In this document: positions 1-15,666 of the stretch, one piece after another
Position numbering within the stretch: the stretch's first letter is position 1
Layout: every line of letters starts with the position of its first letter
IMG/VR virus record: IMGVR_UViG_2667527450_000001
Location: 9,397-73,396 of that record
Source of the DNA: a virus
Lineage: Duplodnaviria; Caudoviricetes
Reading direction: 5' to 3' (one strand)
DNA length: 64,000 bases
Notes under the pieces: generated by a model
What the model was told of the DNA's origin: nothing
What the model saw: only the letters and a program-made list of their open reading frames with translations
The model's database searches: none
Translations under genes and position numbers: made by a program

Positions 1-30
1 GACGCGCTCTGCGAAGCGTGCGCCCGGCCC

Positions 31-315
31 GTGCCCCTCTCCTTCGGCCGACGGCTGTTCGCGGCCCTCACCCATACCGGGCCTGGCTATGACCTGCCAC
101 ATAAGCCTCGCCGCGGAGACGCCGTCGAGCAGTGGCTCAAGGCCCAGCGTGACATGCAACGCGACCGGTTCGGCCGAACCCCCGCCTGGCACAACCTCGA
201 CGACCTGCTCGACGCCTACCGCCTGCACGCCGACACCGGCACCCCGCTCGGCGAGCACGTCTGCATGGCACAGGCCGTCGGCGGATGTGACTGCTTCGAC
301 ACCACCGCCCAGTAG
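31..315 (+). CDS. hypothetical phage protein (start uncertain)
   Basis: ORF with GC3-biased codons ending just before an intergenic hairpin. Confidence 0.55.
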   Translation: MPLSFGRRLFAALTHTGPGYDLPHKPRRGDAVEQWLKAQRDMQRDRFGRTPAWHNLDDLLDAYRLHADTGTPLGEHVCMAQAVGGCDCFDTTAQ

Positions 316-389
316 GGCGCCCCGGGCCGCCGCCACCCGACATGGCGGCGGCCCACCCCTCCAGCATCACACCCGATCGGAGAACCGCG

Positions 390-761
390 ATGACCCGCCG
401 CCTCACCCCGGCCGAACGCCTCGCCGCCACCGACAAGAACACCACCCTCGACAGCATCGTCGCTCGAACCGGCGACTGGGACAGGTTCCTCGTCGAGCAG
501 GCCATTTGGCACTTCGGGCTCGCCTGCGACGAGTGGTCCGCCAACGACCTCCGCGACATCCTGCCCGAGCTGTCCCACGGCTACCTCGGCGCCGCCATCA
601 ACTCGCTGCGCACCGCCGGCCTGATCGAGCACACCGGGGACATGGTGCCGTCCACCAGCGGCCCCACCCACGGCCATCGCCTCAGCGTCTGGCGGCTGTC
701 CATCAAGGGCCTCGTCATAGCCGAGACCCGCCGCAGCCGGCCCAAGCAGGCCGCCGCGTGA
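390..761 (+). CDS. hypothetical protein, possible winged-helix
   Basis: GGAGA RBS before ATG 390; motif LGAAINSLRTAGLIEHTG. Confidence 0.65.
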   Translation: MTRRLTPAERLAATDKNTTLDSIVARTGDWDRFLVEQAIWHFGLACDEWSANDLRDILPELSHGYLGAAINSLRTAGLIEHTGDMVPSTSGPTHGHRLSVWRLSIKGLVIAETRRSRPKQAAA

Positions 762-892
762 GGCTCCTCCGCCGGCTCGCCGCACTCCTCCGTCGCCGCG
801 AACCCCTCGACCCGCAACTCGCCGCACTCGAAGCCATCTGGCGCCACCCCGCCGCCCGCCGCCGCAACACCCCAGGAAGGGGGAACCGATGA
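758..892 (+). CDS. small hypothetical protein
   Basis: GTGA and ATGA overlaps with both neighbours. Confidence 0.5.
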   Translation: MRLLRRLAALLRRREPLDPQLAALEAIWRHPAARRRNTPGRGNR

Positions 893-1761
893 CCGCCACG
901 AAGACGCTCCCGCCCCACGGAACGCTGTCCCGCCACAAGTACCACGGCTGCAAGTGCGCCACCTGTTATGAGGGCTACCGGACCTATCAGCGGTCCCGCC
1001 ACCGCAAGCAGGGCTACGGAACGTGGCAGCCCTACGTCGATGCCGAACCCATCCGGCAGCACCTGCTGAAGCTCCGTGAACAGGGCATCGGCTTCACTCG
1101 CGTCGCCGAGCTCGCCGGCTTGTACCCCGCCACCGTCGGCGGATTCCTCTACGACCTCGGCAACAACAGGCCCCGCAAGGTGAAGGCTCGCCCCGAGATC
1201 GCGGCCAGGATCCTCGCGGTCACCGCCGACACCACCCAGCCATGGCGTATGGACGCCACCGGGACCCGCCGGCGCCTTCAGGCGCTTGCCGCCAACGGCT
1301 GGCCCTTCAAGAGCCTCGGCCCTCACATCGGCGTACACCCCGCAACCGTCGCCAGGCTCCTCCACCAGGACCACGTCTACGCGAGCACGGCCACAGCAGT
1401 CGCTGACACCTACCAGAGCCTTGCCGAAGACCAGCCGGAGCAGCACGGCGTGACCCCTGGTATGGCGCGGCGGGCACGCAATCACGCGGAACGCGAAGGC
1501 TGGCGCACTCCCCAATGGTGGGAGGACATGGGCGACATCGACGACCCCGACTTCGACCCCGACAAGGCAGACGCCGCCCCGACCTTCCTCGAACGAGCAG
1601 CCCTCCGACGCGAGGAGATCATCCACCTCGCCTGGTCCGGCAACGACCCCGACCACATCCACGCCCGGCTCAACGAAGAAGTGTCCATCAGCACCGTCCG
1701 AGCGATCGTCCGCGAATGGCAGACCGGCCAGAAGCGCGACCGAAGGGTGGCCGCGGCATGA
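889..1761 (+). CDS. multi-HTH DNA-binding protein with N-terminal Cys/His (Zn) motif
   Basis: HGT..YHGCKCATC; repeated HTH-like segments; GTRRRLQALAANGW motif typical of actinophage proteins. Confidence 0.75.
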   Translation: MTATKTLPPHGTLSRHKYHGCKCATCYEGYRTYQRSRHRKQGYGTWQPYVDAEPIRQHLLKLREQGIGFTRVAELAGLYPATVGGFLYDLGNNRPRKVKARPEIAARILAVTADTTQPWRMDATGTRRRLQALAANGWPFKSLGPHIGVHPATVARLLHQDHVYASTATAVADTYQSLAEDQPEQHGVTPGMARRARNHAEREGWRTPQWWEDMGDIDDPDFDPDKADAAPTFLERAALRREEIIHLAWSGNDPDHIHARLNEEVSISTVRAIVREWQTGQKRDRRVAAA

Positions 1762-2009
1762 CCGGCATCTGGCAGGACCAGGCCCTCTGCGCCCAGACCG
1801 ACCCCGAGATCTTCGCGCCGGACGTCTACAACGCCGCCACCACCCGCGACGCCAAGGACATCTGCAACCGCTGCGAAGTCAGACGTGAATGCCTCGCTGA
1901 CGCCCTCGCGGAGGAAGGCGCCGACGCCATCCAACTGCGCGCAGCCGTCCGCGGAGGCACCACTCCGCGCGAACGCCACGACATCAGCCGCAAGCCAGCC
2001 GCCGCCTAG
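1758..2009 (+). CDS. WhiB-family (Wbl) transcription factor
   Basis: WQDQALCAQTDPEIF..AKDICNRCEVRRECL: four Cys; GVWGG replaced by AVRGG. Confidence 0.9.
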   Translation: MTGIWQDQALCAQTDPEIFAPDVYNAATTRDAKDICNRCEVRRECLADALAEEGADAIQLRAAVRGGTTPRERHDISRKPAAA

Positions 2010-2045
2010 ACGCAACGACGCCCCGCCCTACCAGCGGGGCACCCG

Positions 2046-2123
2046 GCCCGGGTGGCGCAACAGGCAGACGCAGCCGCCTTAAAAGCGGATCAAGTGCGGG
2101 TTCGAATCCCGTTCCGGGCTCCA
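2046..2123 (+). tRNA. tRNA-Leu, anticodon UAA (bldA-type specificity), short variable loop, encoded CCA
   Basis: Acceptor GCCCGGG/TCCGGGC; Leu-type D arm GCG..GGCAGACGC; anticodon loop CTTAAAA; T arm GCGGG-TTCGAAT-CCCGT; 3' CCA. Confidence 0.85.
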
Positions 2124-2149
2124 GACGACCAGATCCCAGGAGAAACCCA

Positions 2150-3109
2150 ATGACCACCTACCTGCTCCACCTCCACATCCCCGGACATGACACGCGGCCA
2201 CTCACCATCACCGGCGGCACCCCGGGTGAACTCGCCGCCGCCGTACACCGGCACGCCCGCGGCCAACTCGGCAGCTCCCGCGTCGACGTACACCTCGACG
2301 GCCTCGACGGCGAAATCGTCGCCCACGGCGCGACCGCGGGCACCTTCACCCTCCAGCCGGTCGAACAAACCCAGCCGGCCACCAGCGACTCCACTGCCGC
2401 CGACCACGTCGCCCACGGCTACACCATGCGCGACCTCGACCGCGCAGCACGCGCCGCCTGCACAGCCGACCGCACCCTCTCCTCCAACATCAGCCTCCGC
2501 TACGACCTCGCCTGGTCAGCCATCGCCGAACACCTCGTCACCACCGACCAGCCCCCGGCATGGCCCGAGTTGGTGCGCGTCGGCTGGCAGGCCATCTACC
2601 AGGACGTGAAGGCCGTCCGCCGCCTCTACGGCGTCGACTCCACCGGCCGCTCCGGCGAGGTGGCATCCGCACCCCGCTTCGTCGCCTACTGGACCCACGC
2701 GTCGACCGACGGGGCAAGCGACGGCATCGTCGAGCGCATCGCCGTCCACCAGGTTCTCGCCACCCTCCCCGAGCATCAGCGGCAGGCGGTCGTCGCCCTC
2801 GCCACGCAGGACGACTACCAGAAGGCCGCCGACGCCCTCGGCATCAAGTACGCGACCCTCACCGCCCGCATCCGACACGGCCGCCGAGGATTCCGCACCC
2901 TGTGGTTCTCACCCGAGACCGCCCCGCCCACCAAGGGCACAGACCGTCGCGTCGCCTCCCGAGCCGGCACCCCAAATCACTGCCCGCAGGGCCACGAGTA
3001 CACGCCGGAGAACACCATCCGCCGGCCCTCCAGCCGCGGTCGACGCTGCCGCACCTGTGAACAGATCCGCGACGCCGCCCGCAACCGCCGCCGTGCGGAG
3101 GTGGCTTGA
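2150..3109 (+). CDS. sigma-70 region 4-like protein with C-terminal Zn finger
   Basis: VLATLPEHQRQAVVAL..YQKAADALGIKYATLTARIRHGR; C-terminal HCPQGHEYTPENT..CRTC. Confidence 0.7.
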   Translation: MTTYLLHLHIPGHDTRPLTITGGTPGELAAAVHRHARGQLGSSRVDVHLDGLDGEIVAHGATAGTFTLQPVEQTQPATSDSTAADHVAHGYTMRDLDRAARAACTADRTLSSNISLRYDLAWSAIAEHLVTTDQPPAWPELVRVGWQAIYQDVKAVRRLYGVDSTGRSGEVASAPRFVAYWTHASTDGASDGIVERIAVHQVLATLPEHQRQAVVALATQDDYQKAADALGIKYATLTARIRHGRRGFRTLWFSPETAPPTKGTDRRVASRAGTPNHCPQGHEYTPENTIRRPSSRGRRCRTCEQIRDAARNRRRAEVA

Positions 3110-3504
3110 TCGTGCCCAGCATGCAGATACCCGACGATCTGTGCCCGGTGCATAGGGAGATCGCTAAAGGGTGGCGTGACAACCACTTCGACATCTGGAA
3201 CCCCGGGGAATGGCCCGCCGGCCGGTCCGTCACTTCGGGTGAGCGCACGTTGCTCATGGATAACCGGACCACCGTTGACGAGCGAGAGGCCGAGTTCGAG
3301 CGGAAGAACCGGGAGCAAGTGGAACTGACCATCCGGATCTGCCGCTCAGGCCGGTCACCTCAATGCACTCCAGGGCACCGCGATCGGGGCACCAGTCGCT
3401 TCGACCACGCACTCGACACAGCCGACGTTGAGCCGCCCGAGCAGCCAGCCGTCCCGGCGCCACGCTCCACCCACGACGTGCAACTCGTCGGCACCTACCT
3501 GTAG
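3106..3504 (+). CDS. hypothetical protein
   Basis: TTGA overlap with upstream gene; GGAGG RBS. Confidence 0.5.
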   Translation: MIVPSMQIPDDLCPVHREIAKGWRDNHFDIWNPGEWPAGRSVTSGERTLLMDNRTTVDEREAEFERKNREQVELTIRICRSGRSPQCTPGHRDRGTSRFDHALDTADVEPPEQPAVPAPRSTHDVQLVGTYL

Positions 3505-3527
3505 CCACATCCTCCGAAGGAAGCCCG

Positions 3528-4511
3528 ATGCCCTGGTTCGCGCTCGACGACGGGTTCGACACCCACCCGAAGGTCCGCAAGGCGGGTAACGCTGCGGCCG
3601 GGCTGTTCTGCCGCATGGGCGCCCACTGCGCGAAGCACCTCACTGAGGGGCTCGTCGACAGCGCGACCGCGCGGGACTACGGCAGCGTTGCCCAGCTCCG
3701 GAAGCTGGTAGACGTCGGCATGTTGCACCCGGCCGGCCACGGTTGTGGAAGGTGCCCGCAGCCAGAGCCGGGCGGATACGTCTTGCATGACTACCTCGAC
3801 TACAACCGGTCCCGGAAGCAGATCGAGACGGCCCGGGAGAACGGCCGGAAGCGCCAGCAGAAGGGTCGCGACCGGCAGGCTGAAGCCCGCAAGCGCAATG
3901 ATTCGAGCGCGAATCGAGACGCAAACGCCGCCCAAAATGAACGCGATTTGGCGTCATTTTGCGTCCAAAATGAACCTCACTTTGAGGAAGGAACCGCAGG
4001 CCAGGGGCATGTGTCACGGCGTGACACCCTCCAGGGTGCTACGGCCGTCCCCTCCCATCCCATCCCCAGCAGTTCTTTCAGAACTGCTGCTAAGGGCAGC
4101 GGGCAGCTGGCCGGGATCTCCATCCCCGAGTGGGCGCAGCCTCTGGTCGACGCTCTCAGCGACAGCAACATCCACCTCAGCTGGCGACTCAGCACGATGC
4201 AGTGGGGCGCGGTCCAGGAACTGATCAACACCCGTGGGGTGCCGTTCCTTGCAGAGCAGGCCCGACGCCGCTGGAACCCGAAAGACCCGATCAAGTTCGC
4301 CAGCTTGCTGATTCAAATCTGGTGCGAGATCCCGGCCCCGTCGCCCCGCAAGGCCCGCGACGGCTCGTCGAACGAACTTCCCCCGTACTGCGGCGACCCC
4401 GACTGCGACGAAGTCACCCGCACCCGCGACGTCGAGCACGCCAACGGGATCCGCTCTCTCACGCCGTGCCCTGTATGCCACCCATCCCGTAAGGAGAACC
4501 GAGCCGCATGA
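3528..4511 (+). CDS. phage replication initiator-like protein
   Basis: N-terminus MPWFALDDGFDTHPKV..AAGLF; LHDYLDYN; directly upstream of the helicase; C-terminal Cys cluster. Confidence 0.7.
   Translation: MPWFALDDGFDTHPKVRKAGNAAAGLFCRMGAHCAKHLTEGLVDSATARDYGSVAQLRKLVDVGMLHPAGHGCGRCPQPEPGGYVLHDYLDYNRSRKQIETARENGRKRQQKGRDRQAEARKRNDSSANRDANAAQNERDLASFCVQNEPHFEEGTAGQGHVSRRDTLQGATAVPSHPIPSSSFRTAAKGSGQLAGISIPEWAQPLVDALSDSNIHLSWRLSTMQWGAVQELINTRGVPFLAEQARRRWNPKDPIKFASLLIQIWCEIPAPSPRKARDGSSNELPPYCGDPDCDEVTRTRDVEHANGIRSLTPCPVCHPSRKENRAA
3900..4027. repeat. candidate replication origin repeats inside the rep gene
   Basis: CCAAAATGAAC at 3932 and 3965, inverted TCATTTTG at 3954, palindromes 3900-3915 and 4011-4027; locally AT-richer. 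Confidence 0.55.
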
Positions 4512-5863
4512 CCGACGAGTTCGAAGACCTGGAGCGCACCCCGCCTCAGCACCTGGAAGCTGAGCAGGCTGTTCTCGGGGCGATGTTGCTCAGCCCCAGG
4601 AGCGTCATCGACCAGGTGATGCCCATCGTCAAGCCGGATGACTTCTACCGTCCCGCCCACGAGATGATCTTCACGGTCATCTGCGACGTCTACGGCCGCA
4701 GCCGCGACCCGAAGATCGACCCCATCACCATTGCCGCCGAGCTTCACAGCGCTGGACTCATCGAAAAAATCGGCGGCGCCACCTACCTTCACACGCTCGT
4801 ACAGACAGTGCCGTCCACCGGCAACGCCGACTACTACGCCCACATCGTCTACGAGAAGGCGCAACTCCGGCGCGTCATCGAAGCGTCCAGCAGGGCCGCT
4901 TCCCGCGCCTACGCCTCCCAGGGCGAGGCGACCGAAATCGTCGATGACGCCATGGCAGAGCTGCAAGGCGCCGCCACTGGCATCTCCGCAATCGAGGTCA
5001 AGCTCAGCGTCAGCGACCGGTGGGCCGGCTTCCTCGACGAGCTGGAGGCCGGCAAGGATCCCCGGGCACTGGACACGCCCTGGCAAGACCTCAACGAAAT
5101 CGTCGAGTTGAAGCCCGGCCAGCTAGTGACAGTCGGCGCCGCCACGGGCGGAGGTAAATCGCTGCTCGGCATGAACCTCGCCGCGCACGTCGCCATGACC
5201 CGAGCCCGGCCCGTGCTCGTCGCCTCCATGGAGATGGGCGGCTCGGAACTCATGGCGCGCCTCACCGCAGCCGAAGCGTCCGTGAACTTGGACCGGCTCA
5301 TTCGCCGGAAGCTTGAGGACTCCGACTGGGCAAAGATCGCGAAGGCTTCGGAGCGGCTACAGAACGCCCAGAACTTCATCCTCGACGACTCGCCCAGCCT
5401 CACCGTCAGCAAAATCCGGGCCCGCATGCGATGGATGACCTCCCGCGGCACACCACCCGCCATGGTCGTCGCCGATTACCTCCAGCTCCTCACCCCCGAG
5501 AGCAGCAAGGGCAGCGGCGAGAAGTCCCGAGCTGTGGAAGTCGCCGAGCTATCCCGCAACTTGAAGCTGCTGGCGATGGAGTTCGAGATCCCCGTAGTCG
5601 CCCTTGCCCAGTTCAATCGCAACGCGGTCGGCCGCCAGCCGCAGGTGTCGGACTTCAAGGACTCGTCGGCGATCGAGCAGGACTCGAACGTGATCGTGCT
5701 CATGCACCGACCGCTGGCCGAGGACGGATCCGACACCAGCGAACGCGCCGGTGAGATCGACCTCATCGTCGCGAAGAACCGCAACGGCGCCTCCGGCCGC
5801 ATCGTCCCCCTGGTCTTCCAAGGCCACTACGCCCGCCTGCGGTCCCTCGGCCGCGCCGTCTGA
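4508..5863 (+). CDS. dnaB: DnaB-like replicative helicase
   Basis: PPQHLEAEQAVLGAML, Walker A GAATGGGKS, SMEM, DYLQL, AQFNR, SSAIEQD, AKNRNG. Confidence 0.95.
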   Translation: MTDEFEDLERTPPQHLEAEQAVLGAMLLSPRSVIDQVMPIVKPDDFYRPAHEMIFTVICDVYGRSRDPKIDPITIAAELHSAGLIEKIGGATYLHTLVQTVPSTGNADYYAHIVYEKAQLRRVIEASSRAASRAYASQGEATEIVDDAMAELQGAATGISAIEVKLSVSDRWAGFLDELEAGKDPRALDTPWQDLNEIVELKPGQLVTVGAATGGGKSLLGMNLAAHVAMTRARPVLVASMEMGGSELMARLTAAEASVNLDRLIRRKLEDSDWAKIAKASERLQNAQNFILDDSPSLTVSKIRARMRWMTSRGTPPAMVVADYLQLLTPESSKGSGEKSRAVEVAELSRNLKLLAMEFEIPVVALAQFNRNAVGRQPQVSDFKDSSAIEQDSNVIVLMHRPLAEDGSDTSERAGEIDLIVAKNRNGASGRIVPLVFQGHYARLRSLGRAV

Positions 5864-5876
5864 CAAGGAGCTCAGC

Positions 5877-6149
5877 GTGATCACCTGGAACGAACTCGTC
5901 CTCGCCGAACCGCGGCTGCGGGACCTTGAGGCACAAGCCCGAGCCGAGGCCACCAAGGCACTGCGGGACCCGGAATGGTCCTTCTCTGCCTACTGGTCCT
6001 TCACTCTGCGGCCCGCCGTCAACCTGCTCGTCGGTTGGAAGCGGCCTGGCACCGATCAGCCCCAGCTGCGCACAGAGGAAGCGTGGCATGCCGCGATCAG
6101 CCACTTGATCTGCTTGCTGCCCGAAGGCGAAGGGGCGCTGGCGTCATGA
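5877..6149 (+). CDS. hypothetical protein
   Basis: AAGGAG RBS and GTG start; coupled to next gene. Confidence 0.65.
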   Translation: MITWNELVLAEPRLRDLEAQARAEATKALRDPEWSFSAYWSFTLRPAVNLLVGWKRPGTDQPQLRTEEAWHAAISHLICLLPEGEGALAS

Positions 6150-6340
6150 AGGACACCTGCCCGGCTTGCCTGACCCGCGACATAGCCCCCGCCGAATCCC
6201 GCCGCCGCGGCGGCCGAACCGTCGACGGCTACCAGTGCCCCCGCTGCCGCCACACGTGGGCCACGGTCCGCGACCTCACCGCCTACTCCGAACTCCACGC
6301 CCGCCGCGCCCAGCGCCGCAACCGAAGGAGCGCCGCGTGA
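6146..6340 (+). CDS. small Zn-ribbon protein
   Basis: CPAC...YQCPRCRHTW; ATGA overlap. Confidence 0.65.
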   Translation: MKDTCPACLTRDIAPAESRRRGGRTVDGYQCPRCRHTWATVRDLTAYSELHARRAQRRNRRSAA

Positions 6341-6642
6341 TCCAGATCCTGCCCATCGGGACCCCGGTGTGGGTCGCCCAGGCCGCTGACCCGTCGACGG
6401 GCCGCCGCGCTCTGGCCGGCGACGGGGTGGTGACCGGTCACGTGCCGTGCAGCGCTTGCTGGCAGCGGTACACCGGTTCGATCCGGCGTATGTCCCGGGC
6501 CGCCTACGCCGCGGTGGCCGCAGCGTGCGACAGGCCGGCCGGGTTCGTGGTCACGGTCCACCGTCGGCCGGTGACCGTCACCGCCGACGACCCCACGGTG
6601 ATCGCGGTGCCGATCACGAGCGATGAGCGGAGCACGGCATGA
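6337..6642 (+). CDS. hypothetical protein
   Basis: GTGA overlap, AAGGAG RBS. Confidence 0.6.
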   Translation: MIQILPIGTPVWVAQAADPSTGRRALAGDGVVTGHVPCSACWQRYTGSIRRMSRAAYAAVAAACDRPAGFVVTVHRRPVTVTADDPTVIAVPITSDERSTA

Positions 6643-6830
6643 GCCACTACGTGTCCATCGTCTGCGACACTGTCGACGACTTCGGCGAACGCTGCTGGAC
6701 CGAAGACAGCGGTCCGGGTGAGCCGAAGTCCGCGACGGCTGCCCGCGAACGCCTTCGGAGCGGAGGCTGGCACCGGACTCGCGACGGCCGCGACATTTGC
6801 CCCGGCTGCTGGACGGACGGTCGGCGATGA
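6639..6830 (+). CDS. small Cys-rich protein
   Basis: CD..C...GW..GRDICPGC motif; coupled genes. Confidence 0.65.
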   Translation: MSHYVSIVCDTVDDFGERCWTEDSGPGEPKSATAARERLRSGGWHRTRDGRDICPGCWTDGRR

Positions 6831-7105
6831 CCGCCCGCTGTCGCGCCTGCCGGCGTCGTCTGACGCGCCCGGCCGCGGATGGTCTCGGGCCGGTGTGTCG
6901 CCGCCGGATGCAACCCGCCGTGCTGGCACCGCGCTTGGACCTGCCGCCCGCCGTGCCCGCCGCCTCAGGCCAGCTCGCGTTCGACGACCCGCCACCCGAG
7001 GTGCCGTGCAGCGAGTGGCCGGCACCCCGCCGACTCGACCGCCGAACCGTCACCGTGCCCGGACCCGACACCTGGAACCCCAACCCGCCCGAGGAGGCTG
7101 CCTGA
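6827..7105 (+). CDS. DUF6011-like Zn-finger protein
   Basis: CRACRRRLT...GLGPVC. Confidence 0.65.
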   Translation: MTARCRACRRRLTRPAADGLGPVCRRRMQPAVLAPRLDLPPAVPAASGQLAFDDPPPEVPCSEWPAPRRLDRRTVTVPGPDTWNPNPPEEAA

Positions 7106-7476
7106 TGGCCATCGATCACCGCCCGCTCCAACTCGTCGGCGAGGTATCCGCCCGCGACGGAGGCCCGGACCTGGTGCGGGCCGTCGACGGGGAGCTGGAA
7201 CTCAGGTTCACCCTCAGCATTCCCCGCTGGCGGAATGCTCGCCTCGACGGCCGGGACTACCACCGGGTCGTGCTCCGCAGCCCCGGTACCGGCGACGCGG
7301 CGGCCTATGCCGCGGTGCTTCGCCCCGGGCAGCGCCTTCACGTCCACGGCGTGTGGCGCACCCGAGTCGGACTTGCCGGGACGGTCGACGAGCTGGTGGT
7401 GACCCGTCTGTGGGCGCCGCTCCCGATCCCCGCCGGCACACCCGTCCGCCAGCCCCGCGAAGGAGACCTGCTGTGA
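7105..7476 (+). CDS. OB-fold / SSB-like protein
   Basis: LRFTLSIPR..DYHRVV..AAVLRPGQRLHVHGVWRTR resembles SSB. Confidence 0.5.
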   Translation: MAIDHRPLQLVGEVSARDGGPDLVRAVDGELELRFTLSIPRWRNARLDGRDYHRVVLRSPGTGDAAAYAAVLRPGQRLHVHGVWRTRVGLAGTVDELVVTRLWAPLPIPAGTPVRQPREGDLL

Positions 7477-7718
7477 CCGCCTCGGCGGCGCCGCGGGTCA
7501 CCCTGACCGGCCCGCAGCTTGAGGCGCTGGTGTACGCGGCGAACGGCCTGACGTCCAGCCAGATCGCCGGCCGCCTCGGATGCGGCCGGGACGCCATCAA
7601 CCTCCGTATCCGGTACGCCGCTTCCGCTCTCGGTGCCACGTCCCGCACTCACGCCGTGGCCCTCGCCATCGCCCGCGGGCTCATCGATCCCGACGAGATT
7701 CACCCCGCGAGGCGTTGA
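7473..7718 (+). CDS. LuxR-type HTH protein
   Basis: LTGPQLEALVYAANGLTSSQIAGRLG..LGATSRTHAVALA. Confidence 0.85.
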   Translation: MTASAAPRVTLTGPQLEALVYAANGLTSSQIAGRLGCGRDAINLRIRYAASALGATSRTHAVALAIARGLIDPDEIHPARR

Positions 7719-7818
7719 GCGCCCGCCTGAGCCCCGCAGAGCGCCGCGGGGCTCCCAGGCCCCACATCGACCGCCAAAGGCCGCCATGCGGCCACACAGA
7801 CCCGTAGGAGACCTCGAA

Positions 7819-8253
7819 GTGACCCACCGACAAGAACCGGCGAGCGAAACCGAGCACCACGACCGGGAAACCCCCGAGAACGCCGCCAGCGGCCCGCAGG
7901 GCGCCGCGCGAGGCGAGAACGACGCCCTGGATGCCGAAGCGCCCGAGAGGGCCGCAGACGGGCGCGTAGCACCCCGCGACCCCACCACACCCGACGCCAC
8001 CATCCGCCGGCAGCTTGAGCAGATCCTCGCCCTACGCGAAACCGTCATCCAGCAGCGGGCGGCCATCGACCGCGTCCGGGCGCTCGCCGCCGACATGCGC
8101 ACCTGGTGCTCACCACACGGCATCGCTGCCGACTACGCCGACCGACTCCTCGCCGCCTGGTTCGCGTACACCGCCCTCGGGCCGCTCGTCGCACCGGTGC
8201 GGCTCGAAGTCCGGCATCCGGAGACGACCGCGAGCGGGTGCCGGTCGTGCTGA
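7819..8253 (+). CDS. hypothetical protein
   Basis: AGGAG RBS and GTG; coiled-coil AAIDRVRALA. Confidence 0.5.
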   Translation: MTHRQEPASETEHHDRETPENAASGPQGAARGENDALDAEAPERAADGRVAPRDPTTPDATIRRQLEQILALRETVIQQRAAIDRVRALAADMRTWCSPHGIAADYADRLLAAWFAYTALGPLVAPVRLEVRHPETTASGCRSC

Positions 8254-8318
8254 CGGGCAACGCGCTGACGACAGACGAAAGCCGCACACCGGAAGGCGTG
8301 CGGCTCGGGCGAGGCAGG

Positions 8319-8837
8319 TCAGGCGTCGTCGGTCTGCTTGTCGGCTGCGGTGCGGGCGCGGAAGAGGTCGGCGCGGCTTTGGTACTTCTCCGCGACCGGG
8401 ATGTCGTGCTCGCGGGCGAGCCGGCGGAAGACCTCGGGGGTCATGCCGGTAGCCGCGGAGAGCTGGGCTGCGGTCGCGCCCTTGCGGAGTTCGGCGACCG
8501 CGAGTTCCGTGACGATCGGGCGCAGGAAACGAACCTCTTCCAGCGCTTCCCTGTACTCGCCGCAGAGCTTCTCCGACTCGCTGTCGCCCAGGGGGCGGAC
8601 GATGTGGTGGAGGTTCCAGTACGGCTGTTCTGCCCTGATGGCCTCCTTCTCGGTCTTGGCCGCCTCGGCGCGAGTGTCGTGCCACTCCACTCGGCGCTCC
8701 GCGACCTCGGGCCACCATGGTTTCGTCTGGGAGTGCTGGCCGAAGCGAACGTCGGGGTTCTGGCTGATGCCGATGTAGAGCAGCTTCCCCGCGGCGTCGA
8801 AGACGCGGTACAGAGCGGTTCGTCCTTCGCGCTTCAC
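8319..8837 (-). CDS. GIY-YIG nuclease fused to C-terminal HTH
   Basis: TALYRVFDAAGKLLYIGISQNPDVRFGQH..EKEAIRAEQPYWN; GTGA overlap with RHH gene. Confidence 0.8.
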   Translation of the reverse strand: MKREGRTALYRVFDAAGKLLYIGISQNPDVRFGQHSQTKPWWPEVAERRVEWHDTRAEAAKTEKEAIRAEQPYWNLHHIVRPLGDSESEKLCGEYREALEEVRFLRPIVTELAVAELRKGATAAQLSAATGMTPEVFRRLAREHDIPVAEKYQSRADLFRARTAADKQTDDA

Positions 8838-9055
8838 TCGGCGTTGCCTTGCGCCTCGGAGGACTCGGCCTTCCAAGCGTCCCGGTCGGGTCGCTTCACT
8901 TGCTTGGCGCCGGGCTTGTGGATGTACCAGGCCATGAAGGCGCGGATAGCTGCACTGCGGTCGGTTCCCATGGCGGCGGCGGCTTTGCCGAACTCTGCCC
9001 ATTCGTCCAGGTCGACGCGGACGGGGCGGGTGGGTGTCTTCGGTGCGTTCGGCAT
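8834..9055 (-). CDS. ribbon-helix-helix (CopG/Arc-like) protein
   Basis: TPTRPVRVDLDEWAEFGKAA..TDRSAAIRAFMAWY. Confidence 0.75.
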   Translation of the reverse strand: MPNAPKTPTRPVRVDLDEWAEFGKAAAAMGTDRSAAIRAFMAWYIHKPGAKQVKRPDRDAWKAESSEAQGNAE

Positions 9056-9074
9056 GCCCGGACCGTATCCAGGC

Positions 9075-9200
9075 GTAGCTACAGGCTGCAACGTGAGCTC
9101 CTCTCTGGTGTAGCTACGAATCCCTGTCGGGTGTAGCTACAGATTCTTCGGATTGAGACTTGCGGTGTAGCTACACCCAAGAGTACGGTGTAGCTACACC
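9075..9200. promoter_or_regulatory. array of five palindromic GTAGCTAC operators in a divergent promoter
   Basis: Cores at 9075, 9110, 9133, 9167, 9190; last two are perfect GGTGTAGCTACACC. Confidence 0.8.
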
Positions 9201-9253
9201 TCGGGGCAAGAGGTGGAGTCATCGCCAAGCGAACAACCGCAGGGGAGACGGAA

Positions 9254-9523
9254 ATGAACGCCACCGCAGACGCCTTCGAGCCTGTCGACTTCAGCGCTGT
9301 CGTGGAAGGTGACCGTCTGCGCTTCCTGACCAACGACAACGGTTACGGCGGGCGCGGCACGTACCGACGTACTGGAACCGTCGTCCGCGTCACCGGCAAG
9401 ACGGTCAAGGTTTCCTGTGACGACGGCACCAGCGGAACCCTCCGCCACGCCGACTGGCGAGCGCGCTCTCCGCAGCGCGCCAGCGGCGCTGAGTGCGCCT
9501 GTACCCGCCGCTTCGAGCGCTGA
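9254..9523 (+). CDS. hypothetical protein (SH3-like beta pattern)
   Basis: GGGGAG RBS; RTGTVVRVTGKTVKV. Confidence 0.6.
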   Translation: MNATADAFEPVDFSAVVEGDRLRFLTNDNGYGGRGTYRRTGTVVRVTGKTVKVSCDDGTSGTLRHADWRARSPQRASGAECACTRRFER

Positions 9524-9590
9524 TCGCCCCGCCTGGCCCTGAGGGGCTAGGCCCGCCCACAGATCTTCCGCATCGTCCGAGGGGGACCCA

Positions 9591-9977
9591 ATGCGCCGCA
9601 CGCTCACCGCCATCCGCCGCACGATCGCCGCCGCTCTCGCCGCCGGCCGGCACCTCCGCTACACGGCCCTCTCCGGCGAGGTCGCCGCCCAGGTAGCCGC
9701 GGGCCGGCTGGTGCGCACCGGGGACCTGCTCGACCGTCTCGGTGCAGGCGACCTTCCCGACGGGCAGAAGTCCTGGTTCGGCCGGCACGTCGCCAAGGCG
9801 TACCGCGGGATGCACGGCGGCGCCGACGCGGTCCGGGTGTGGGCGCAGCACCGCACGACTGGCCGCTGGATTCACGTTCACGTCTACGCCCCTGCCGAGG
9901 CGGCTCTGTACGCCGGGCTCGCCTCCTACAAGGCCACCCGCCACCTCACCCAGGCTCAATTCACGGAGGCGGCTTAG
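9591..9977 (+). CDS. hypothetical protein
   Basis: GAGGGGG RBS; typical codon usage. Confidence 0.65.
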   Translation: MRRTLTAIRRTIAAALAAGRHLRYTALSGEVAAQVAAGRLVRTGDLLDRLGAGDLPDGQKSWFGRHVAKAYRGMHGGADAVRVWAQHRTTGRWIHVHVYAPAEAALYAGLASYKATRHLTQAQFTEAA

Positions 9978-10025
9978 GCCGCCTTCCCCGCTCCGCCCGC
10001 CCGCTCTACCCCGAAGGAGTCTGCT

Positions 10026-10432
10026 GTGTTCGACCCCGAGGTTATGGCTGATCGTCGGCGCATCATCGCCGCGGCCATCGAGCATCTGAAGAGTGGCAAG
10101 TCCACCGAGGTCAGCCCGGAGGGGCTCTCCAGTTCTTGCGCCGTGCCCAGCAGGAGGACGGCACTGTCGGCCAGTTCGGGGCGTACAAGCGGGCGCAGAG
10201 GATCCTCCACCGCGATCACGTCGAGAAGCGGACCGGCCTCTGCGGCACCTGCGGTGACCGCACGAGCAGCGACGTCCGCTACGGCTGCACCCCGTATACC
10301 TGTGTCCGTCCCTGCGACGTTTGTGGCCACCCCGGCGCTGTGCACCGCGACTGGTATGTGCACCGCGGGGAGCCGTGGTTCTGCCGCCGGTGCCCGGAGG
10401 ACGACAACCGCCATGACTACGTACCCGCCTGA
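10026..10432 (+). pseudogene. Cys-rich protein split by a 1-nt frameshift in a G4 run (10121-10124)
   Basis: AAGGAG RBS and GTG; one extra G joins MFDPEV..SPEG to ALQFLRRAQQ..CGTC..CDVC..CRRC. Confidence 0.55.
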
Positions 10433-10520
10433 CGCCACGGGCGTCGCCTCCACGGCCGCCCCAAGTCTCCTGCGTGGGGTGGCCACTCTTCCCACCCGCA
10501 TCAACCCGAAGGAGTACGTC

Positions 10521-10766
10521 ATGGATCCGATGGATGTCCCGACCGAGGTCACGAAGCTCGTCTACTCCGCGCCGCGCACCGAGGCTCGTTCGCAGAACCA
10601 GGTCGCCGAACTCCTCGCCCACTACTGGCCGGCGATCGAGAATCACGTTCGCAGTCAGGTACTGCGGGAGGCCGCCGCGATTGGCCGCGAATTGAGCCGG
10701 AAGGGCTACAGCGCCCAGGAGATCGCGAAGAAGCTCGATGGCATGGCTGACGGCGGCTCCTGGTGA
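10521..10766 (+). CDS. hypothetical protein
   Basis: AAGGAG RBS and ATG. Confidence 0.6.
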   Translation: MDPMDVPTEVTKLVYSAPRTEARSQNQVAELLAHYWPAIENHVRSQVLREAAAIGRELSRKGYSAQEIAKKLDGMADGGSW

Positions 10767-11125
10767 GCGCCGCCGACCTCTCCGCTCGCCTGGACGGCCT
10801 CGGCACCGGTGTCATCCTCCGCTTCGACCAGATACGTGCCGAGACGCTCGAACAGTTGGCTCGCGCGTGGGCCGACGACCCGACCGCGGTCACTGATGCC
10901 CTGGACCGGCTCGCCGCGGTGGTGCAGCGCACGACGGATCCGGACGACGACACCGGCTGGCACCCCGCCGCGATCGATGCGGCCCGCGACGACCTGGAGG
11001 CGGTCGCCGGCCTCGACGCCGCCGAGGTCACCCTGCGGCACGGCACCGCCATCGCACTCGCCGGCGCACTCCAAGCCGCCGCCCGCGGCACGTTCACGGC
11101 GCGCACCCGAGGAGTGGCCGCATGA
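10763..11125 (+). CDS. hypothetical protein
   Basis: GTGA overlap. Confidence 0.6.
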   Translation: MSAADLSARLDGLGTGVILRFDQIRAETLEQLARAWADDPTAVTDALDRLAAVVQRTTDPDDDTGWHPAAIDAARDDLEAVAGLDAAEVTLRHGTAIALAGALQAAARGTFTARTRGVAA

Positions 11126-11182
11126 GTGCACGAGACGACCTGTACGGCCCCGCCGACGCCGAAGCCGCCTGAGGAGGCGACC

Positions 11183-11620
11183 GTGTTCCGCTTCGACCCC
11201 GTAGCCGTACTCCGCCACTACGCCAGCCAGCCGTGCAGCGACCCGGCGTGCGAGGTTGACCGGCTCACATCCATGGCCGACGCCCGCATAGCCATCGGCG
11301 CAGCCCAAGGCGTCGACCTGGACGACATCGACCCGGCCTCGGGCTACGACTACTCCCGCCGCGCCTACGACAACGTCCGCCGCTCCTGGATCGTCAACAT
11401 CAAGTACCACGGCTGGTCACCGTTCTACGAGCAGCAGCACCTCGACAAGGCGCTCGCCTCCTGGACCGAGCACCGACCCGAGTTCACAGCCGGGGACGAC
11501 TGGCTCGCAGCGGGCATCGCCACGCACCGTGCCTACTGGTCCGAGATCGGCCGCCCCTGCAACAGGGGGAGCTGCGTCCTGCACGAATCGCAGACAGCTC
11601 CGGGCGCTGCCGCCGCCTGA
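11183..11620 (+). CDS. hypothetical protein
   Basis: GAGGAGG RBS and GTG. Confidence 0.65.
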   Translation: MFRFDPVAVLRHYASQPCSDPACEVDRLTSMADARIAIGAAQGVDLDDIDPASGYDYSRRAYDNVRRSWIVNIKYHGWSPFYEQQHLDKALASWTEHRPEFTAGDDWLAAGIATHRAYWSEIGRPCNRGSCVLHESQTAPGAAAA

Positions 11621-11677
11621 CCCCCGCCCCACGCCCGCCCCGGACTGGGGCGGGCCACCCACCTTGAGGAGCACTAC

Positions 11678-11956
11678 ATGCACATCGCTTTGCTCCCCGC
11701 CCACACCATGACCATCACCACGATTCCCGACGGCCGGGACCTCGACTGGTCCCACCCCGACAACTGCCCGCAGCCGGAGGACCGGTGCGAGTTCGTGCGT
11801 CGTATGCGACGCATGGGCCACGACATCGCGGACCTGGCCGAGGGGCGGCCGGACGGCGTGTACCGGCTGGGCGGCTTCGGCTTCCACAGCCTGTGCTTGG
11901 TCGACGATGAGGGGCGCATGCTGCCCGAAGTGCCCGTCGCTGAGGCACACGCGTGA
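11678..11956 (+). CDS. hypothetical protein
   Basis: GAGGAG RBS. Confidence 0.6.
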   Translation: MHIALLPAHTMTITTIPDGRDLDWSHPDNCPQPEDRCEFVRRMRRMGHDIADLAEGRPDGVYRLGGFGFHSLCLVDDEGRMLPEVPVAEAHA

Positions 11957-12144
11957 CCGCCCTGCCGCCGAATGGCTGCCGCACTCCTGTGGGCTGCATC
12001 GCGCATCCACGGCGGCCACCGGTCGATCTACGCCAACCGGGACTTCGTGAAGCGCTTCGCAGTCAACCCGTACCCGAACGAACCGCAGTAGTCCCCCCGA
12101 CCCGCCGTGACCCGCGGCGGGCCCACACCACAAGGAGCAGCAGC

Positions 12145-12603
12145 ATGGCTACACCCACCAGCCGGGACGCGATTCTGTCCGAGGCCGTGACCGCACTTCA
12201 AGAGCAGGCAGGGCGACTATCAGAGATGGCTGATGAAGAGATGCGCCGCGACCTTGAGGAGAAGGCGCAGGTCTGGCACGAGGCCGCCGAGGTCGTTCTC
12301 CGCCTGATCGGTAAGCCGCAGCAGGTCAACGCCACAGAGGAGCAGGAGGTCAGCGCGTTGTTCCGGCTCATCTACGACCCCGGCGTCGAATCCCTCCACG
12401 ACCAACTCCCGTCGGCCACGAGCCACGCCCTCACCGCCGCCCTCGACGCCGCCTGCCACGACCCCATCGGACACACCGCACCCCGCCGCGGCCAAGCCGA
12501 AGAATGGAACCGGCAAATCCGAGTCGACGGCGCACTCGCCATGATCTTCGTCAGCTACAGTCAGAAGGCCCTCGCCGTCGTCGACATCATCGACCTCAGC
12601 TGA
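12145..12603 (+). CDS. helical N-domain fused to a RelE/ParE-like C-domain
   Basis: AAGGAG RBS; C-half LFRLIYDP..LPSATSHALTAAL..DPIG..R..VDG..IFV..LAVVDI has a RelE-like pattern. Confidence 0.5.
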   Translation: MATPTSRDAILSEAVTALQEQAGRLSEMADEEMRRDLEEKAQVWHEAAEVVLRLIGKPQQVNATEEQEVSALFRLIYDPGVESLHDQLPSATSHALTAALDAACHDPIGHTAPRRGQAEEWNRQIRVDGALAMIFVSYSQKALAVVDIIDLS

Positions 12604-12717
12604 AGCCGCTCGTCGTGGTGGTTGCTGCACTTCGTTGCTGTACAGCAACCACCTGATCACCGCCCCTCTTCATGGCTCGTTGCGGCCTGGAAGTCCAGCG
12701 CTGGAAGACCTCTGGCG

Positions 12718-12957
12718 CTACATCTTGACCCGGGCCTTCCTCGTCTTCGACCGTTCGGCATCGACGACGACCAGCTCAGCATTGCGGGTGGGCCTTCCGC
12801 GTTCGGTCCAGGTCTCGCGAACCTTCCGGCATAGGGTTCCGGTCCGCCCGAGCTTCTCCAGCAGGATGTTGAAGAGCTCCACGAGCCCTATGAGGGCAAA
12901 GAGCCCGACGACAGCCGTGAGTGCCACCTGGTCGACGTGCTCCGCGGCCGTGATCAT
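12718..12957 (-). CDS. small single-TM membrane protein
   Basis: Hydrophobic VALTAVVGLFALIGLVELF; ATGA-coupled to upstream minigene. Confidence 0.55.
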   Translation of the reverse strand: MITAAEHVDQVALTAVVGLFALIGLVELFNILLEKLGRTGTLCRKVRETWTERGRPTRNAELVVVDAERSKTRKARVKM

Positions 12958-13019
12958 GCACCACCGCCGAGGAGAGCGGCGCTCAACATGTCACACTGGT
13001 TGGCAATGCTCATTGGCAT
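12954..13019 (-). CDS. 21-aa minigene MPMSIANQCDMLSAALLGGGA
   Basis: AAAGGA RBS; its stop overlaps the next ATG. Confidence 0.4.
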   Translation of the reverse strand: MPMSIANQCDMLSAALLGGGA

Positions 13020-13488
13020 GGGTCCTTTCTCGGGACTCGGTGGCTCGCCGCGTCCGGTTTCTGTTGGCGCAGCTCGGACGCGGCGAGCCTTCTGAAGCAG
13101 CCACGGACCTTTCCGCATCTGCAAGTTGTGCAAAGAAGACAAAAAGGGACCCGTCCGCACTCGCGGACGCGATCCCTTCCTCTTCTCGACTCAACGGTAG
13201 CACCACGGCAGAGGTGCGACGCACGGCCGTGACGACGGACGGTCGACCGCTCCCCGGAGTTCGATCAAACCGCCGTTCGTGACCTGCTTGGCAACTTCCG
13301 ACTTGGCTAGTCAGCTCCATGACTTCCCATCAGAGCCCCGGCCGCCGATGCCCTTGCGAGCGGAGCCCGAGGGCCTGGTGACGCTGACGCGGACGGCGGA
13401 GCGGGGGCGCTCTCGCCAGAGCCGACCTCGTGGCGGCCCGCATGCGGCTCAAGCACGCCGACGACCCCACCGAGCGATAACCCCTGTA

Positions 13489-13522
13489 GAAGGGCCCCCG
13501 CCCACCCGGGCAGGGGCCCTTC
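13489..13522. terminator. intrinsic terminator-like hairpin
   Basis: AAGGGCCCC...GGGGCCCTT downstream of a minus-strand gene. Confidence 0.6.
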
Positions 13523-13543
13523 GTCGTCTCGTCGTCGCGGCTC

Positions 13544-13888
13544 TCACGCCGCGACCGCATCCTCCCGCGGGAAAACCGCCGTGCACCCCCTGCACACCAA
13601 CGACCGCTCCCACCGGGCCCGTTCGTCCTCCGCAGCCCGCGCACGCCGCGACAACCAGTAGCCGACACCGATGCTGCCGGCCAGCAGCACGACCCCCGCG
13701 GCTACCTCACCCGAGACCAGCGCCACCACGCCCAGCACGGCCGCTACCACCGGCAGTAGCCACTGCACCACGTACTCCGGCGGCGGCGCATGTGTCCTCT
13801 TCGCCTCCGCGTCCTGCGACAACGACCGCCAAAACTCCGGCCGATGCCACACCTCGCGACCCCCACACCGCGGACAACCAAACGCCAT
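13544..13888 (-). CDS. two-TM membrane protein flanked by CxxC pairs
   Basis: CPRCG..TM..TM..CRGC; GAGGGG RBS. Confidence 0.7.
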   Translation of the reverse strand: MAFGCPRCGGREVWHRPEFWRSLSQDAEAKRTHAPPPEYVVQWLLPVVAAVLGVVALVSGEVAAGVVLLAGSIGVGYWLSRRARAAEDERARWERSLVCRGCTAVFPREDAVAA

Positions 13889-14039
13889 GCCATTCCCCTC
13901 AATCAGAGGAAAACAGGCTGTCACCACGCCAACACAAACGGGCAGCGGCGCACAGGAGCCAAACCGGCGCACACGGCGGCGCGCAAAACCCCGCCCAATG
14001 GGCGGGGCTGGCACTGCGCGCAGCCACACACCGCCGCCC

Positions 14040-14504
14040 CTAGGAGCCGACCAGCGCACCACTGCGATTGCCCAGAACCTGTCGGGCCAGCGCCAGCGTG
14101 TAGTCCTGCCCTGCCGCCGGACTGTCCGACTTCTCGGGGTCCTTGAGCGTCAGCCGGCCAACATACAACCCCTCGTGGCCGTAGATCATCTTGGCGGGCT
14201 GGCTACTCCCGTCGACCTCCAACTCCCACTCCGCGTCCCGGAGGTCCACTGAGGTCGGCTTCAGGACCACGCGGCTACTCCAGCCGGTGCACAGCACCCA
14301 TTCGGTGGCATTCGGACTGTGACGCGCCGCCACATCCATAAGGTGCACGTCCGGTACCTCCGGGACCGCGAGGTACCCCACCACAGCATCAATGCCGAAT
14401 CGCCCGGTGGTCGTGTACGCGACAGCCCCGACCACGTCCGGCCAGAAATGGACCAGAGGGAAGATCGTCACACGACCAGTACCCGACATCGTCCTGCTTG
14501 CCAT
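14040..14504 (-). CDS. hypothetical beta-rich protein
   Basis: GAGGAG RBS; protein-like composition. Confidence 0.7.
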   Translation of the reverse strand: MASRTMSGTGRVTIFPLVHFWPDVVGAVAYTTTGRFGIDAVVGYLAVPEVPDVHLMDVAARHSPNATEWVLCTGWSSRVVLKPTSVDLRDAEWELEVDGSSQPAKMIYGHEGLYVGRLTLKDPEKSDSPAAGQDYTLALARQVLGNRSGALVGS

Positions 14505-14605
14505 GGCTCTCCTCATAGATCTGAACCCGAACGGTCCCGCGCTAGTCTCCCAGCGCGGGACCACTGCACCTAGTCGATCACCTTGCTACAGAACCCAGTT
14601 GACGA

Positions 14606-15600: not shown

Positions 15601-15629
15601 GCCGGCTCCTTAGCTTTCAGACGGATCGA

Positions 15630-15663: not shown

Positions 15664-15666
15664 AGG

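Follow-up and report, generated by a model that had tools for sequence, protein, structure and literature searches.

The gene at positions 2046–2123 probably encodes a working type I tRNA-Leu (i.e., one with a short variable loop) that reads UUA codons and resides in the early/replication block of a temperate siphovirus prophage in a Streptomyces-type host, a reading to which we assign a probability of about 0.6. In Streptomyces, UUA and the single tRNA bldA together gate development and antibiotic production at the level of translation, and the host genome carries a bldA-type gene in addition to the gene described here. The stretch at 2046–2123 is a genuine tRNA gene and more than a chance match; its expression, its charging, and the mRNAs that would benefit are inferred.

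Throughout, the window denotes the entire 64,000-nt stretch of DNA that was analyzed (G000:C70:9398-73397), which is part of a genome of 9.36 Mb in 94 contigs with about 68–70% GC. The features needed for the analysis are listed here with window coordinates unless the contig (C70) is given.

2046..2123, + strand: type I (short variable loop) tRNA-Leu with anticodon UAA, U73, and encoded CCA (ARAGORN, Rfam RF00005, parse against homologs, covariation)
1..64000, no strand: prophage body of ~72.8 kb, which continues past both window ends (direct repeats, integrase, phage genes)
C70:1390-2658, − strand: tyrosine integrase, just inside the left repeat (PF00589, 6e-19)
1758..2009, + strand: whiB-like transcription factor gene (phrog_472, 1e-16; phrog_14459; longest ORF from 1515)
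2150..3109, + strand: 319-aa protein with a C-terminal HNH domain (phrog_1492 HNH endonuclease, 4e-11, residues 240–317)
3528-4511, + strand: replication initiator (phrog_30000/phrog_2447)
4508-5863, + strand: DnaB-like helicase (phrog_19, 1e-101)
34253-35842, strand not given: TerL, the large terminase (element annotation)
35830-37344, strand not given: portal (element annotation)
40779-42140, strand not given: major head protein (element annotation)
46803-49601, strand not given: tape measure (element annotation)
53837-54742, strand not given: endolysin (element annotation)

The element is a temperate siphovirus-type prophage. An exact 21-bp direct repeat of lower GC is present at C70:1210 and C70:73967 and brackets a span of 72,778 bp (C70:1210-73987), with attL 8.2 kb to the left of the window start and attR 570 nt to the right of its end. 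In addition to the genes listed, the repeats enclose a tail protein gene and, deeper inside the left repeat than the integrase, a Gp3-like recombination directionality factor (RDF). On the host side, attL extends into the 3′ end of a gene for a PucR-type HTH protein, and genes for OHCU decarboxylase and uricase lie beyond attR. We considered the tRNA gene itself as the attachment site and rejected this candidate: the sole long bracketing repeat sits in the PucR-type HTH gene, 10.2 kb from the tRNA. A megablast search of window positions 1–12000 against 50,697 phage records gave no match, and the best match of the portal protein in a tblastn search of the same records had 26% identity; thus, there is no close isolated relative and no matched control phage that lacks the tRNA.

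The tRNA gene is located 10.2 kb inward from attL within the early/replication module, and the genes that flank it are all on its strand. The stop codon of the whiB-like gene lies 36 nt upstream of the tRNA and the start of the HNH-domain gene 27 nt downstream; whiB-like homologs with 54% identity are found directly upstream of the tRNA in two related loci (L034 and L149). The HNH-domain neighbor matched no Pfam model at 1e-4, and an Atlas search returned only weak leads to sigma-70 region 4 and HTH proteins. A promoter and terminator scan of positions 300–3400, of a kind that is poorly informative for Streptomyces promoters, gave zero promoter-like sites and no terminator on the + strand; together with the shared strand of the neighboring genes this fits cotranscription with the early genes, which for Streptomyces is weak evidence. 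Location in an early operon of lytic type suggests that the tRNA is silent in the lysogen.

Run over the 64-kb window, ARAGORN called a single tRNA, at 2046–2123 (+), as tRNA-Leu with anticodon taa, and the Rfam model RF00005 matched positions 2046–2120 with 46.7 bits (E = 8e-07, cut-off 29), which places the sequence among tRNAs. The initial annotation had described a tRNA-Leu(UAA) with CCA, a short loop, a G-A mismatch, and U73, and had proposed a check with a tRNAscan-type program; every feature that it listed is present, and both programs agree with its call. The acceptor stem consists of seven pairs including G7.U66, the D stem has the 3 bp of the Leu type and is closed by a long D loop, a G27.A43 mismatch tops the anticodon stem, the anticodon loop is CUUAAAA, and the T stem contains G49.U65. 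Six nucleotides separate the anticodon stem from the T stem, and the variable loop is therefore 5–6 nt long, since A26-U44 may or may not be taken as paired. All universal nucleotides are there (U8, A14, G18-G19, U33, U54-U55-C56, and A58, with UUCGAAU as the T loop), the 3-70 pair is C3-G70 and not G3.U70, CCA is encoded in the DNA, and parsing against homologs finds the four stems and the universal positions intact. Position 73, the discriminator, is U, where a canonical tRNA-Leu of the E. coli type has A73. The minimum free energy fold of the sequence is not a cloverleaf (z = −0.26), a result that carries little information.

This tRNA belongs to a family that is widespread in actinobacteria. 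A BLAST search of 400 other family genomes with the 78 nt, in which the anticodon was unconstrained, recovered at least nine short-armed copies in at least seven genomes, nine of nine with UAA; two candidates were scored per genome, so that these counts are lower bounds. A pattern scan of one-genome-per-species contigs and of IMG/VR contigs yielded 114 stretches from the former and nine viral contigs from the latter, and ARAGORN called 123 tRNA-Leu(UAA) of 74–80 nt in these matches; because the pattern specified the anticodon arm, a variable loop of short length, and the first portion of the T arm, constancy in the anticodon arm and in that portion of the T arm is by construction. The copies fall into two groups, one from Nocardioides, Brachybacterium, Pimelobacter, and many Actinomycetota MAGs and the other, to which the prophage tRNA belongs, from viral contigs and from several dozen records of Streptomyces, Kitasatospora, and Wenjunlia. 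A73 is present in 120 of the 122 copies that could be parsed, 92 of 92 in the first group and 28 of 30 in the streptomycete/viral group, where the exceptions are U73 in L102 (a Streptomyces aculeolatus contig) and G73 in L150 (a viral contig). The tRNA of L102, which is a second, diverged prophage, is 96% identical to the prophage tRNA, and a further copy 10 kb from L102 has G73 together with a compensatory change in the anticodon stem. L034, with A73, is 97% identical to the prophage tRNA and has the same two G.U pairs; a type II copy, L009, shows 88% identity in the columns that are shared. In the alignment of 31 members, 19 lack a standard pair between positions 27 and 43. This mismatch and the short loop are thus traits of the family and U73 is a rare variant; the initial view that the short loop and U73 make the tRNA aberrant is not supported, and the proposed look for U73 in homologs turned up L102 against a large majority with A73.

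Covariation supports the cloverleaf. Among the 31 streptomycete/viral copies, 96.6% of the cells in the cloverleaf are paired, versus 34–46% when the 3′ partners are slid by 1–3 columns, and six pairs in the acceptor, D, and anticodon stems have changed on both sides; none of 500 shuffles matched any of the five covariation measures. These copies are mutually related. Because the scan pattern had fixed the anticodon arm and half of the T stem, it is the acceptor and D stems that carry the information. Across loci the tRNA is 88–97% identical versus 25–66% for the flanking proteins. An HNH-domain homolog lies within 3.5 kb of the tRNA, on either side, in 12 of 36 loci, with none nearby in the other 24, and a whiB-like gene lies within the same distance in five of 36.

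We ran a covariance model built from the alignment (R1) on 150 other genomes of the host genus, keeping only the top tiers because the model is unspecific below ~65 bits, where Phe and other tRNAs match. Top-tier matches were obtained in three genomes with 88.6–92.2 bits (94.1 bits for the prophage tRNA), and the anticodon UAA is kept in the four top matches of R1. The 29 R1 loci that were retrieved comprise three type I UAA genes, one type II UAA gene, 22 type I tRNA-Leu(CAA) genes of 74–75 nt, and three Phe/Asp genes; several of the 22 CAA genes have the variable loop ACAGC that is described for type I tRNA-Leu of S. coelicolor (Fan et al. 2019; PMC6614811). A long-armed bldA-type gene is followed on its own strand by a type I UAA gene, at distances of 320, 553, and 1,141 nt, in three genomes; the flanks are 82–96% identical mutually and common to a fourth genome. 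The tandem copy in G154 was considered as the mark of a prophage at bldA and found no support, as the seven proteins scanned are ordinary chromosomal ones without an integrase or HNH gene, and a blastp comparison of the G154 neighbors with this prophage gave no match. That only bldA reads UUA in Streptomyces, as initially stated, is in accordance with Rokytskyy et al. (2016; PMC4932002), who give a single UUA tRNA for each of six model genomes, and fails for those other streptomycetes that carry type I UAA copies.

Genomes of the first group can depend on the type I tRNA alone to read UUA. For three of three genomes, namely Nocardioides halotolerans, Brachybacterium phenoliresistens, and a complete MAG chromosome, the sole UUA-cognate tRNA is of type I, and among the Rfam tRNAs of at least 79 nt in these genomes (8, 11, and 9 genes, respectively) none has the anticodon UAA; these long tRNAs are Ser, Tyr, Leu (CAG, GAG, and UAG, with or without CAA), Glu, and Gln. 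Since no long-armed UAA tRNA is present in any of the three, the type I UAA architecture works as a cellular tRNA in these other actinobacteria.

ARAGORN identified seven tRNA-Leu genes in the host genome, six of them outside the prophage, and these six are 83–88 nt long with a long variable arm and A73 in all six. They include a long-armed, bldA-type tRNA-Leu(UAA) at C74:488769-488851, on a contig other than that of the prophage, so the prophage gene is, as had been proposed, a second UUA tRNA beside bldA. Inspection of the seven ARAGORN tRNA-Leu genes revealed no native short-armed tRNA-Leu in this genome, and the host CAA tRNA is long-armed. The host has a single LeuRS, most likely of 965 aa, in which the leucine-specific domain ends in LG directly before KMGKS. 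Compared with the LeuRS of five members of the genus that have a type I tRNA-Leu of their own, five of five of which share the LG-KMGKS ending, this enzyme shows 80–89% identity, and its type was assigned by way of these genus members and the domain ending. Given the bldA gene, an adpA-like gene with TTA, at least 259 TTA genes, and the 965-aa LeuRS, the host looks like a streptomycete, as the initial annotation had supposed.

The published enzymology bears directly on whether such a tRNA can be charged. Fan et al. (2019; PMC6614811) report that the single LeuRS of S. coelicolor (ScoLeuRS; 967 aa) leucylates both type I tRNA-Leu(CAA) and the type II tRNA bldA, and that A73 is no identity element for this enzyme: the A73U change gave a kcat/Km of 141% in the type I CAA tRNA and of 88% in the type II UAA tRNA, and three of three A73 mutants of bldA, A73U included, fully restored a bald mutant. 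According to the same source, C74 and the U8-A14 pair are essential for charging by ScoLeuRS, at least five variable-loop nucleotides are needed with nucleotide 48 among them, and whether type I tRNA can be charged is decided by the leucine-specific domain, above all by the Leu-Gly at its end; an E. coli-like LeuRS of 870 aa from one Streptomyces was unable to charge type I. The features named there are found in both partners here: the prophage tRNA has U8, A14, C74-C75-A76, and a 6-nt loop, and the host enzyme is a long LeuRS in which Leu-Gly precedes the KMSKS-type loop. Because ScoLeuRS is independent of A73 (PMC6614811) and the host LeuRS is of the same type, leucylation of the prophage tRNA by the host LeuRS is likely, and U73 is probably neutral rather than disabling. 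A73 had been named initially as the main LeuRS identity element, which the kinetic data for S. coelicolor contradict (PMC6614811), and mischarging, which had been offered as one outcome, is consequently not favored. The survival of non-A73 copies in nature is in keeping with the published view that the discriminator is ignored by Streptomyces LeuRS (PMC6614811).

The prophage tRNA does not serve the codon usage of the phage, because there is no in-frame TTA in the 110 genes of the whole element (20,013 codons), the terminase gene at 34253–35842 included. For the window alone the count is zero in 95 called genes (17,334 codons), so that the spot checks of the initial annotation stand up to exhaustive counting. 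TTA was made neutral in the gene model used, an earlier model having penalized it, and a gene caller based on a GC3 rule was too strict (42 genes) and was replaced. The window contains 104 TTA triplets in all frames of both strands. Two candidate in-frame codons proved to be noncoding: the TTA at 18131 falls within an operator-like repeat that precedes an ATG at 18270 with GGAG upstream of it, and the TTA at 60764 lies 4 nt before an ATG at 60770. At the host rate of 285 TTA in 1,924,068 codons (4,642 confident genes, 0.148 per 1000), approximately three TTA codons would be expected in the element, and P(0) is ~0.05.

TTA codons are present in at least 259 host genes (259 of the 4,642 confident genes). 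The adpA-like gene is one of them; it encodes 419 aa with a DJ-1-like and an AraC-HTH domain, the architecture of AdpA, and has a TTA codon between the two domains and a second TTA three codons before the start.

Related elements were surveyed in the same way. Five fuller viral records (39.6–88.1 kb; four with a CheckV completeness of 100%, and G405 with 61%) contain 1, 2, 0, 1, and 1 TTA in 83,798 codons (0.06 per 1000), and in each of them a type I tRNA-Leu(UAA) is the only convincing tRNA; four more related records contain 1, 1, 1, and 0 TTA. Several apparent TTA genes in L152, L130, L006, and G411 are ORFs that overlap the tRNA gene and were discounted. As the TTA rate of the relatives is no higher than that of the host, there is no sign of a tRNA matched to phage demand. 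One TTA gene of the related elements encodes a 409-aa HTH regulator and the others have no assigned function; five of the eight are on the strand opposite the tRNA, which would be the usual place of lysogeny and accessory genes. Among elements that are at least 88% complete, five of five with A73 have 1–2 TTA codons and zero of two with non-A73 (this prophage and G403) have any, a pattern that, coming from seven elements and our own gene calls, is a hint only.

These observations can be assembled into a mechanism. The tRNA would most likely be cotranscribed with the whiB-like and HNH/replication genes and cut out by host processing enzymes. Judging from the published enzymology and the sequence of the host enzyme, the single S. 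coelicolor-type LeuRS of the host would charge it with leucine despite U73, and UUA could then be decoded independently of the developmentally gated, long-armed bldA tRNA. One candidate beneficiary is the set of at least 259 host TTA genes, the adpA-like gene included, during induction or infection; another is the occasional TTA in the accessory genes of related phages, in which case this copy would be insurance. Action on host TTA genes stays a live reading, since the element is TTA-free, a second UUA tRNA is present, and the host is streptomycete-like.

A bolder version, which we regard as tentative and put well below the working-tRNA reading, is that the short-armed tRNA-Leu(UAA) is a mobile bypass of bldA by which TTA-avoiding temperate Streptomyces phages, with a LeuRS-chargeable reader of the rarest host codon as their only tRNA, would open TTA-gated genes of the host for their own advantage. 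Here, placement next to a developmental regulator of the whiB-like type within the early operon would mean that upon infection or induction TTA-gated host genes are translated before bldA is effective, that adpA is among them, and that development, hydrolases, and antibiotic regulators follow; the chromosomal copies adjacent to bldA could be domesticated versions of the same device or its source. If this were true, lysogeny or infection could open the UUA gate, with consequences for phage–host dynamics and for the activation of silent biosynthetic clusters. The idea is directly testable with existing bldA mutants and TTA reporters.

Several observations weigh against a working tRNA. In the host genome the prophage tRNA is the lowest-scoring of 67 Rfam tRNA matches and it combines U73 with two G.U pairs; type I tRNA-Leu is missing from the native tRNAs of the host, and one Streptomyces LeuRS cannot charge type I (PMC6614811); no promoter-like site was found near the gene in the 300–3400 scan; and the association of non-A73 with zero TTA could likewise reflect a relaxation of selection on this copy. 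A first alternative is a decaying or weakly active copy, a member of a functional family that is unneeded in a TTA-free phage and contributes little or nothing. We consider this possible, though clearly less probable than a working tRNA. The low Rfam score, the pairs G7.U66 and G49.U65, a U73 that departs from the A73 of 120 of 122 pattern matches, the absence of TTA from the element, and the contrast in TTA between the two non-A73 and the five A73 elements can all be read in its favor. However, type I members generally score 46.6–59.8 bits, so that a low Rfam score is a trait of the family, and L034, which has A73, carries the same two G.U pairs and scores 46.6 bits versus 46.7 bits here. In addition, none of the four stems or of the universal positions has been lost, U73 is shared with the diverged prophage L102 and has thus been transmitted, and A73U is harmless to both S. 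coelicolor LeuRS and bldA function (PMC6614811).

A second alternative is that the gene is a selfish or structural element, either a mobile cassette together with the HNH gene or a processing point for RNase P/Z between the whiB and replication transcripts, with decoding incidental. The tight spacing of the tRNA between its two neighbors without a promoter or terminator signal, the HNH homologs near the tRNA at 12 of 36 loci, and the near absence of TTA from these phages are consistent with it. We nevertheless regard it as unlikely, because UAA is kept in nine of nine unconstrained copies and in the four top R1 matches although a processing signal would not need an anticodon, because two-thirds of the loci (24 of 36) have no HNH homolog nearby, and because the proteins scanned around chromosomal copies adjacent to bldA included neither an HNH protein nor an integrase. 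The third alternative, in which U73 diverts the tRNA so that it is a mischarged or uncharged UUA reader that corrupts or blocks host TTA translation, or in which it is a decoy for anticodon nucleases as had also been suggested initially, is very improbable despite the unusual U73 and the lack of a phage codon that requires the tRNA, given that A73U does not impair S. coelicolor LeuRS (PMC6614811), that A73 in 120 of 122 relatives argues against a family built for mischarging, that the prophage tRNA has C3-G70 in place of G3.U70, that its anticodon is not known to fit any identity set of a synthetase that uses U73, and that no nuclease or defense gene was linked to the tRNA in this analysis, leaving nothing in support of a decoy. 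The initial observation is thus confirmed and its interpretation partly supported.

A working type I tRNA that reads UUA has close counterparts among studied tRNAs. The prophage tRNA resembles the type I tRNA-Leu(CAA) of S. coelicolor in its 5–6-nt variable loop, its Leu-type body, U8-A14, and C74, and a long LeuRS of the S. coelicolor type is the expected charging enzyme in both cases (PMC6614811). It differs from that tRNA in its natural UAA anticodon, U73, location on a prophage, and presence in a host without type I, and the chromosomal type I CAA tRNAs of the genus are only 74% identical to it. Fan et al. (2019; PMC6614811), citing Pettersson and Kirsebom (2011), note that a type I tRNA-Leu engineered to carry the UAA anticodon replaces bldA, and the prophage tRNA would do likewise. 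With bldA itself it shares the UAA anticodon, the UUA codon, and the first six acceptor pairs, and both genes are present in the same cell; unlike bldA, it has no long arm, shows 74% identity, is not at the bldA locus, ends its anticodon loop with A38 versus C38, and lies in a phage early operon and so probably outside developmental control. The streptomycete type I UAA genes adjacent to bldA have the same architecture and anticodon and 88–91% identity to the prophage tRNA, and those of Nocardioides and Brachybacterium, where they are the sole UUA readers, have 78–79% identity. The latter group has A73 in 92 of 92 copies and the copies adjacent to bldA are chromosomal with A73, whereas the prophage tRNA is phage-borne with U73.

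A Streptomyces phage that exploits the UUA/bldA gate has been discussed before. Antonov et al. (2023; PMC10732093) find that Streptomyces phages usually lack UUA and discuss UUA-based sensing in the terminase of phiHau3; the accessible text does not mention a phage tRNA for UUA. Judged by that text, the two cases would be alike in exploiting the gate and are opposite in means, as phiHau3 has UUA codons without a tRNA and the present element has a tRNA without a UUA codon.

In the literature we found no natural type I tRNA-Leu(UAA) described on prophages, beside bldA, or as sole reader, though supplementary tables may list some. Already published are the type I tRNA-Leu of Streptomyces (PMC6614811), a passing mention of a short-armed tRNA-Leu(UAG) from a mobile tRNA cluster of Mycobacterium mucogenicum (PMC6582537), and the annotations of Streptomyces phage Wakanda (gene 130, CAA) and Mycobacterium phage Phabba (gt003, GAG), both of which encode a 74-nt type I tRNA-Leu with A73. 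The present survey places type I tRNA-Leu in a far wider range of actinobacteria and actinobacterial phages than would be supposed from S. coelicolor, whose CAA tRNA is the one case studied biochemically. The tRNA-Leu of Wakanda, Phabba, and the M. mucogenicum cluster are likewise carried on mobile DNA of actinobacteria and are 80–83% identical to the prophage tRNA; they have other anticodons and belong to large tRNA sets, whereas here the tRNA is the only one and is cognate to the rarest codon of the host.

A pattern scan for an anticodon arm followed by a short variable loop and the start of a T-arm showed that chromosomal short-armed tRNA-Leu(UAA) genes are conserved at 92 loci (L032, L035, L091 and 89 others), whose record titles name Nocardioides, Brachybacterium, Pimelobacter and metagenome-assembled genomes (MAGs) of Actinomycetota. 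All 92 genes carry A73. Because the type I gene is the sole UUA-cognate tRNA in the three genomes of the Nocardioides/Brachybacterium/MAG group that were checked (3/3), we conclude from gene content that UUA is read by a type I tRNA in these genera, whereas it is read by the type II bldA tRNA in Streptomyces.

Type I genes also occur beside bldA itself. In some genomes of the host genus the long-armed bldA-type gene is followed on the same strand, 0.3-1.1 kb further downstream, by a type I tRNA-Leu(UAA), so that two UUA readers stand in tandem. The flanks of these genes are conserved and chromosomal.

L002 (G154:C24), L223, L224 and L225: type I tRNA-Leu(UAA) adjacent to a bldA-type gene

Two type I copies are found 10 kb apart on a contig of Streptomyces aculeolatus. 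One has U73 and the other G73, and the G73 copy has a compensatory change within the anticodon stem.

G413:C93:306467-306541 and 316776-316852: type I tRNA-Leu(UAA) pair (L208, L209)

A long-armed tRNA-Leu(UAA) (L009, G126:C9:39263-39350) is 88% identical to the prophage tRNA over the shared columns of the acceptor, D and T arms. It may represent the ancestral form, which would have lost its variable arm to give the phage tRNA. Two phage records, MT836143.1 and MT836665.1, which are unannotated "Bacteriophage sp." entries from human faecal samples, match the prophage tRNA at 81-82% identity across 86-87% of its length.

Adjacent to the prophage tRNA is a gene for an HNH-domain protein, homologs of which are encoded within 3.5 kb of the tRNA, on either side, in 12 of the 36 related loci. 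The N-terminal 240 aa gave only weak leads to sigma-70 region 4 or helix-turn-helix domains.

2150-3109, + strand: protein of 319 aa, HNH domain at the C terminus

The host genome encodes an adpA-like gene with two TTAs, one located three codons upstream of the likely ATG and one between the domains. This arrangement matches the upstream-ORF pattern reported by Antonov et al. 2023 (PMC10732093).

G000:C48:475996-477255: host adpA-like gene (L257)

Two further features were identified in the prophage. A motif pair lies in the intergenic stretch that separates two divergent genes, one leftward (17336-18073) and the other a rightward excisionase/MerR-like gene with its ATG at 18270; it looks like the operator pair of a lysis-lysogeny switch. 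A weak integrase-like ORF lies near the right end; the clear tyrosine integrase is at attL, outside the window.

18085-18137: two copies, 41 nt apart, of an 11-nt motif with the palindrome CTTAAG
61033-62052, + strand: second, weak integrase-like ORF (PF00589 at 23 bits, under the cut-off)
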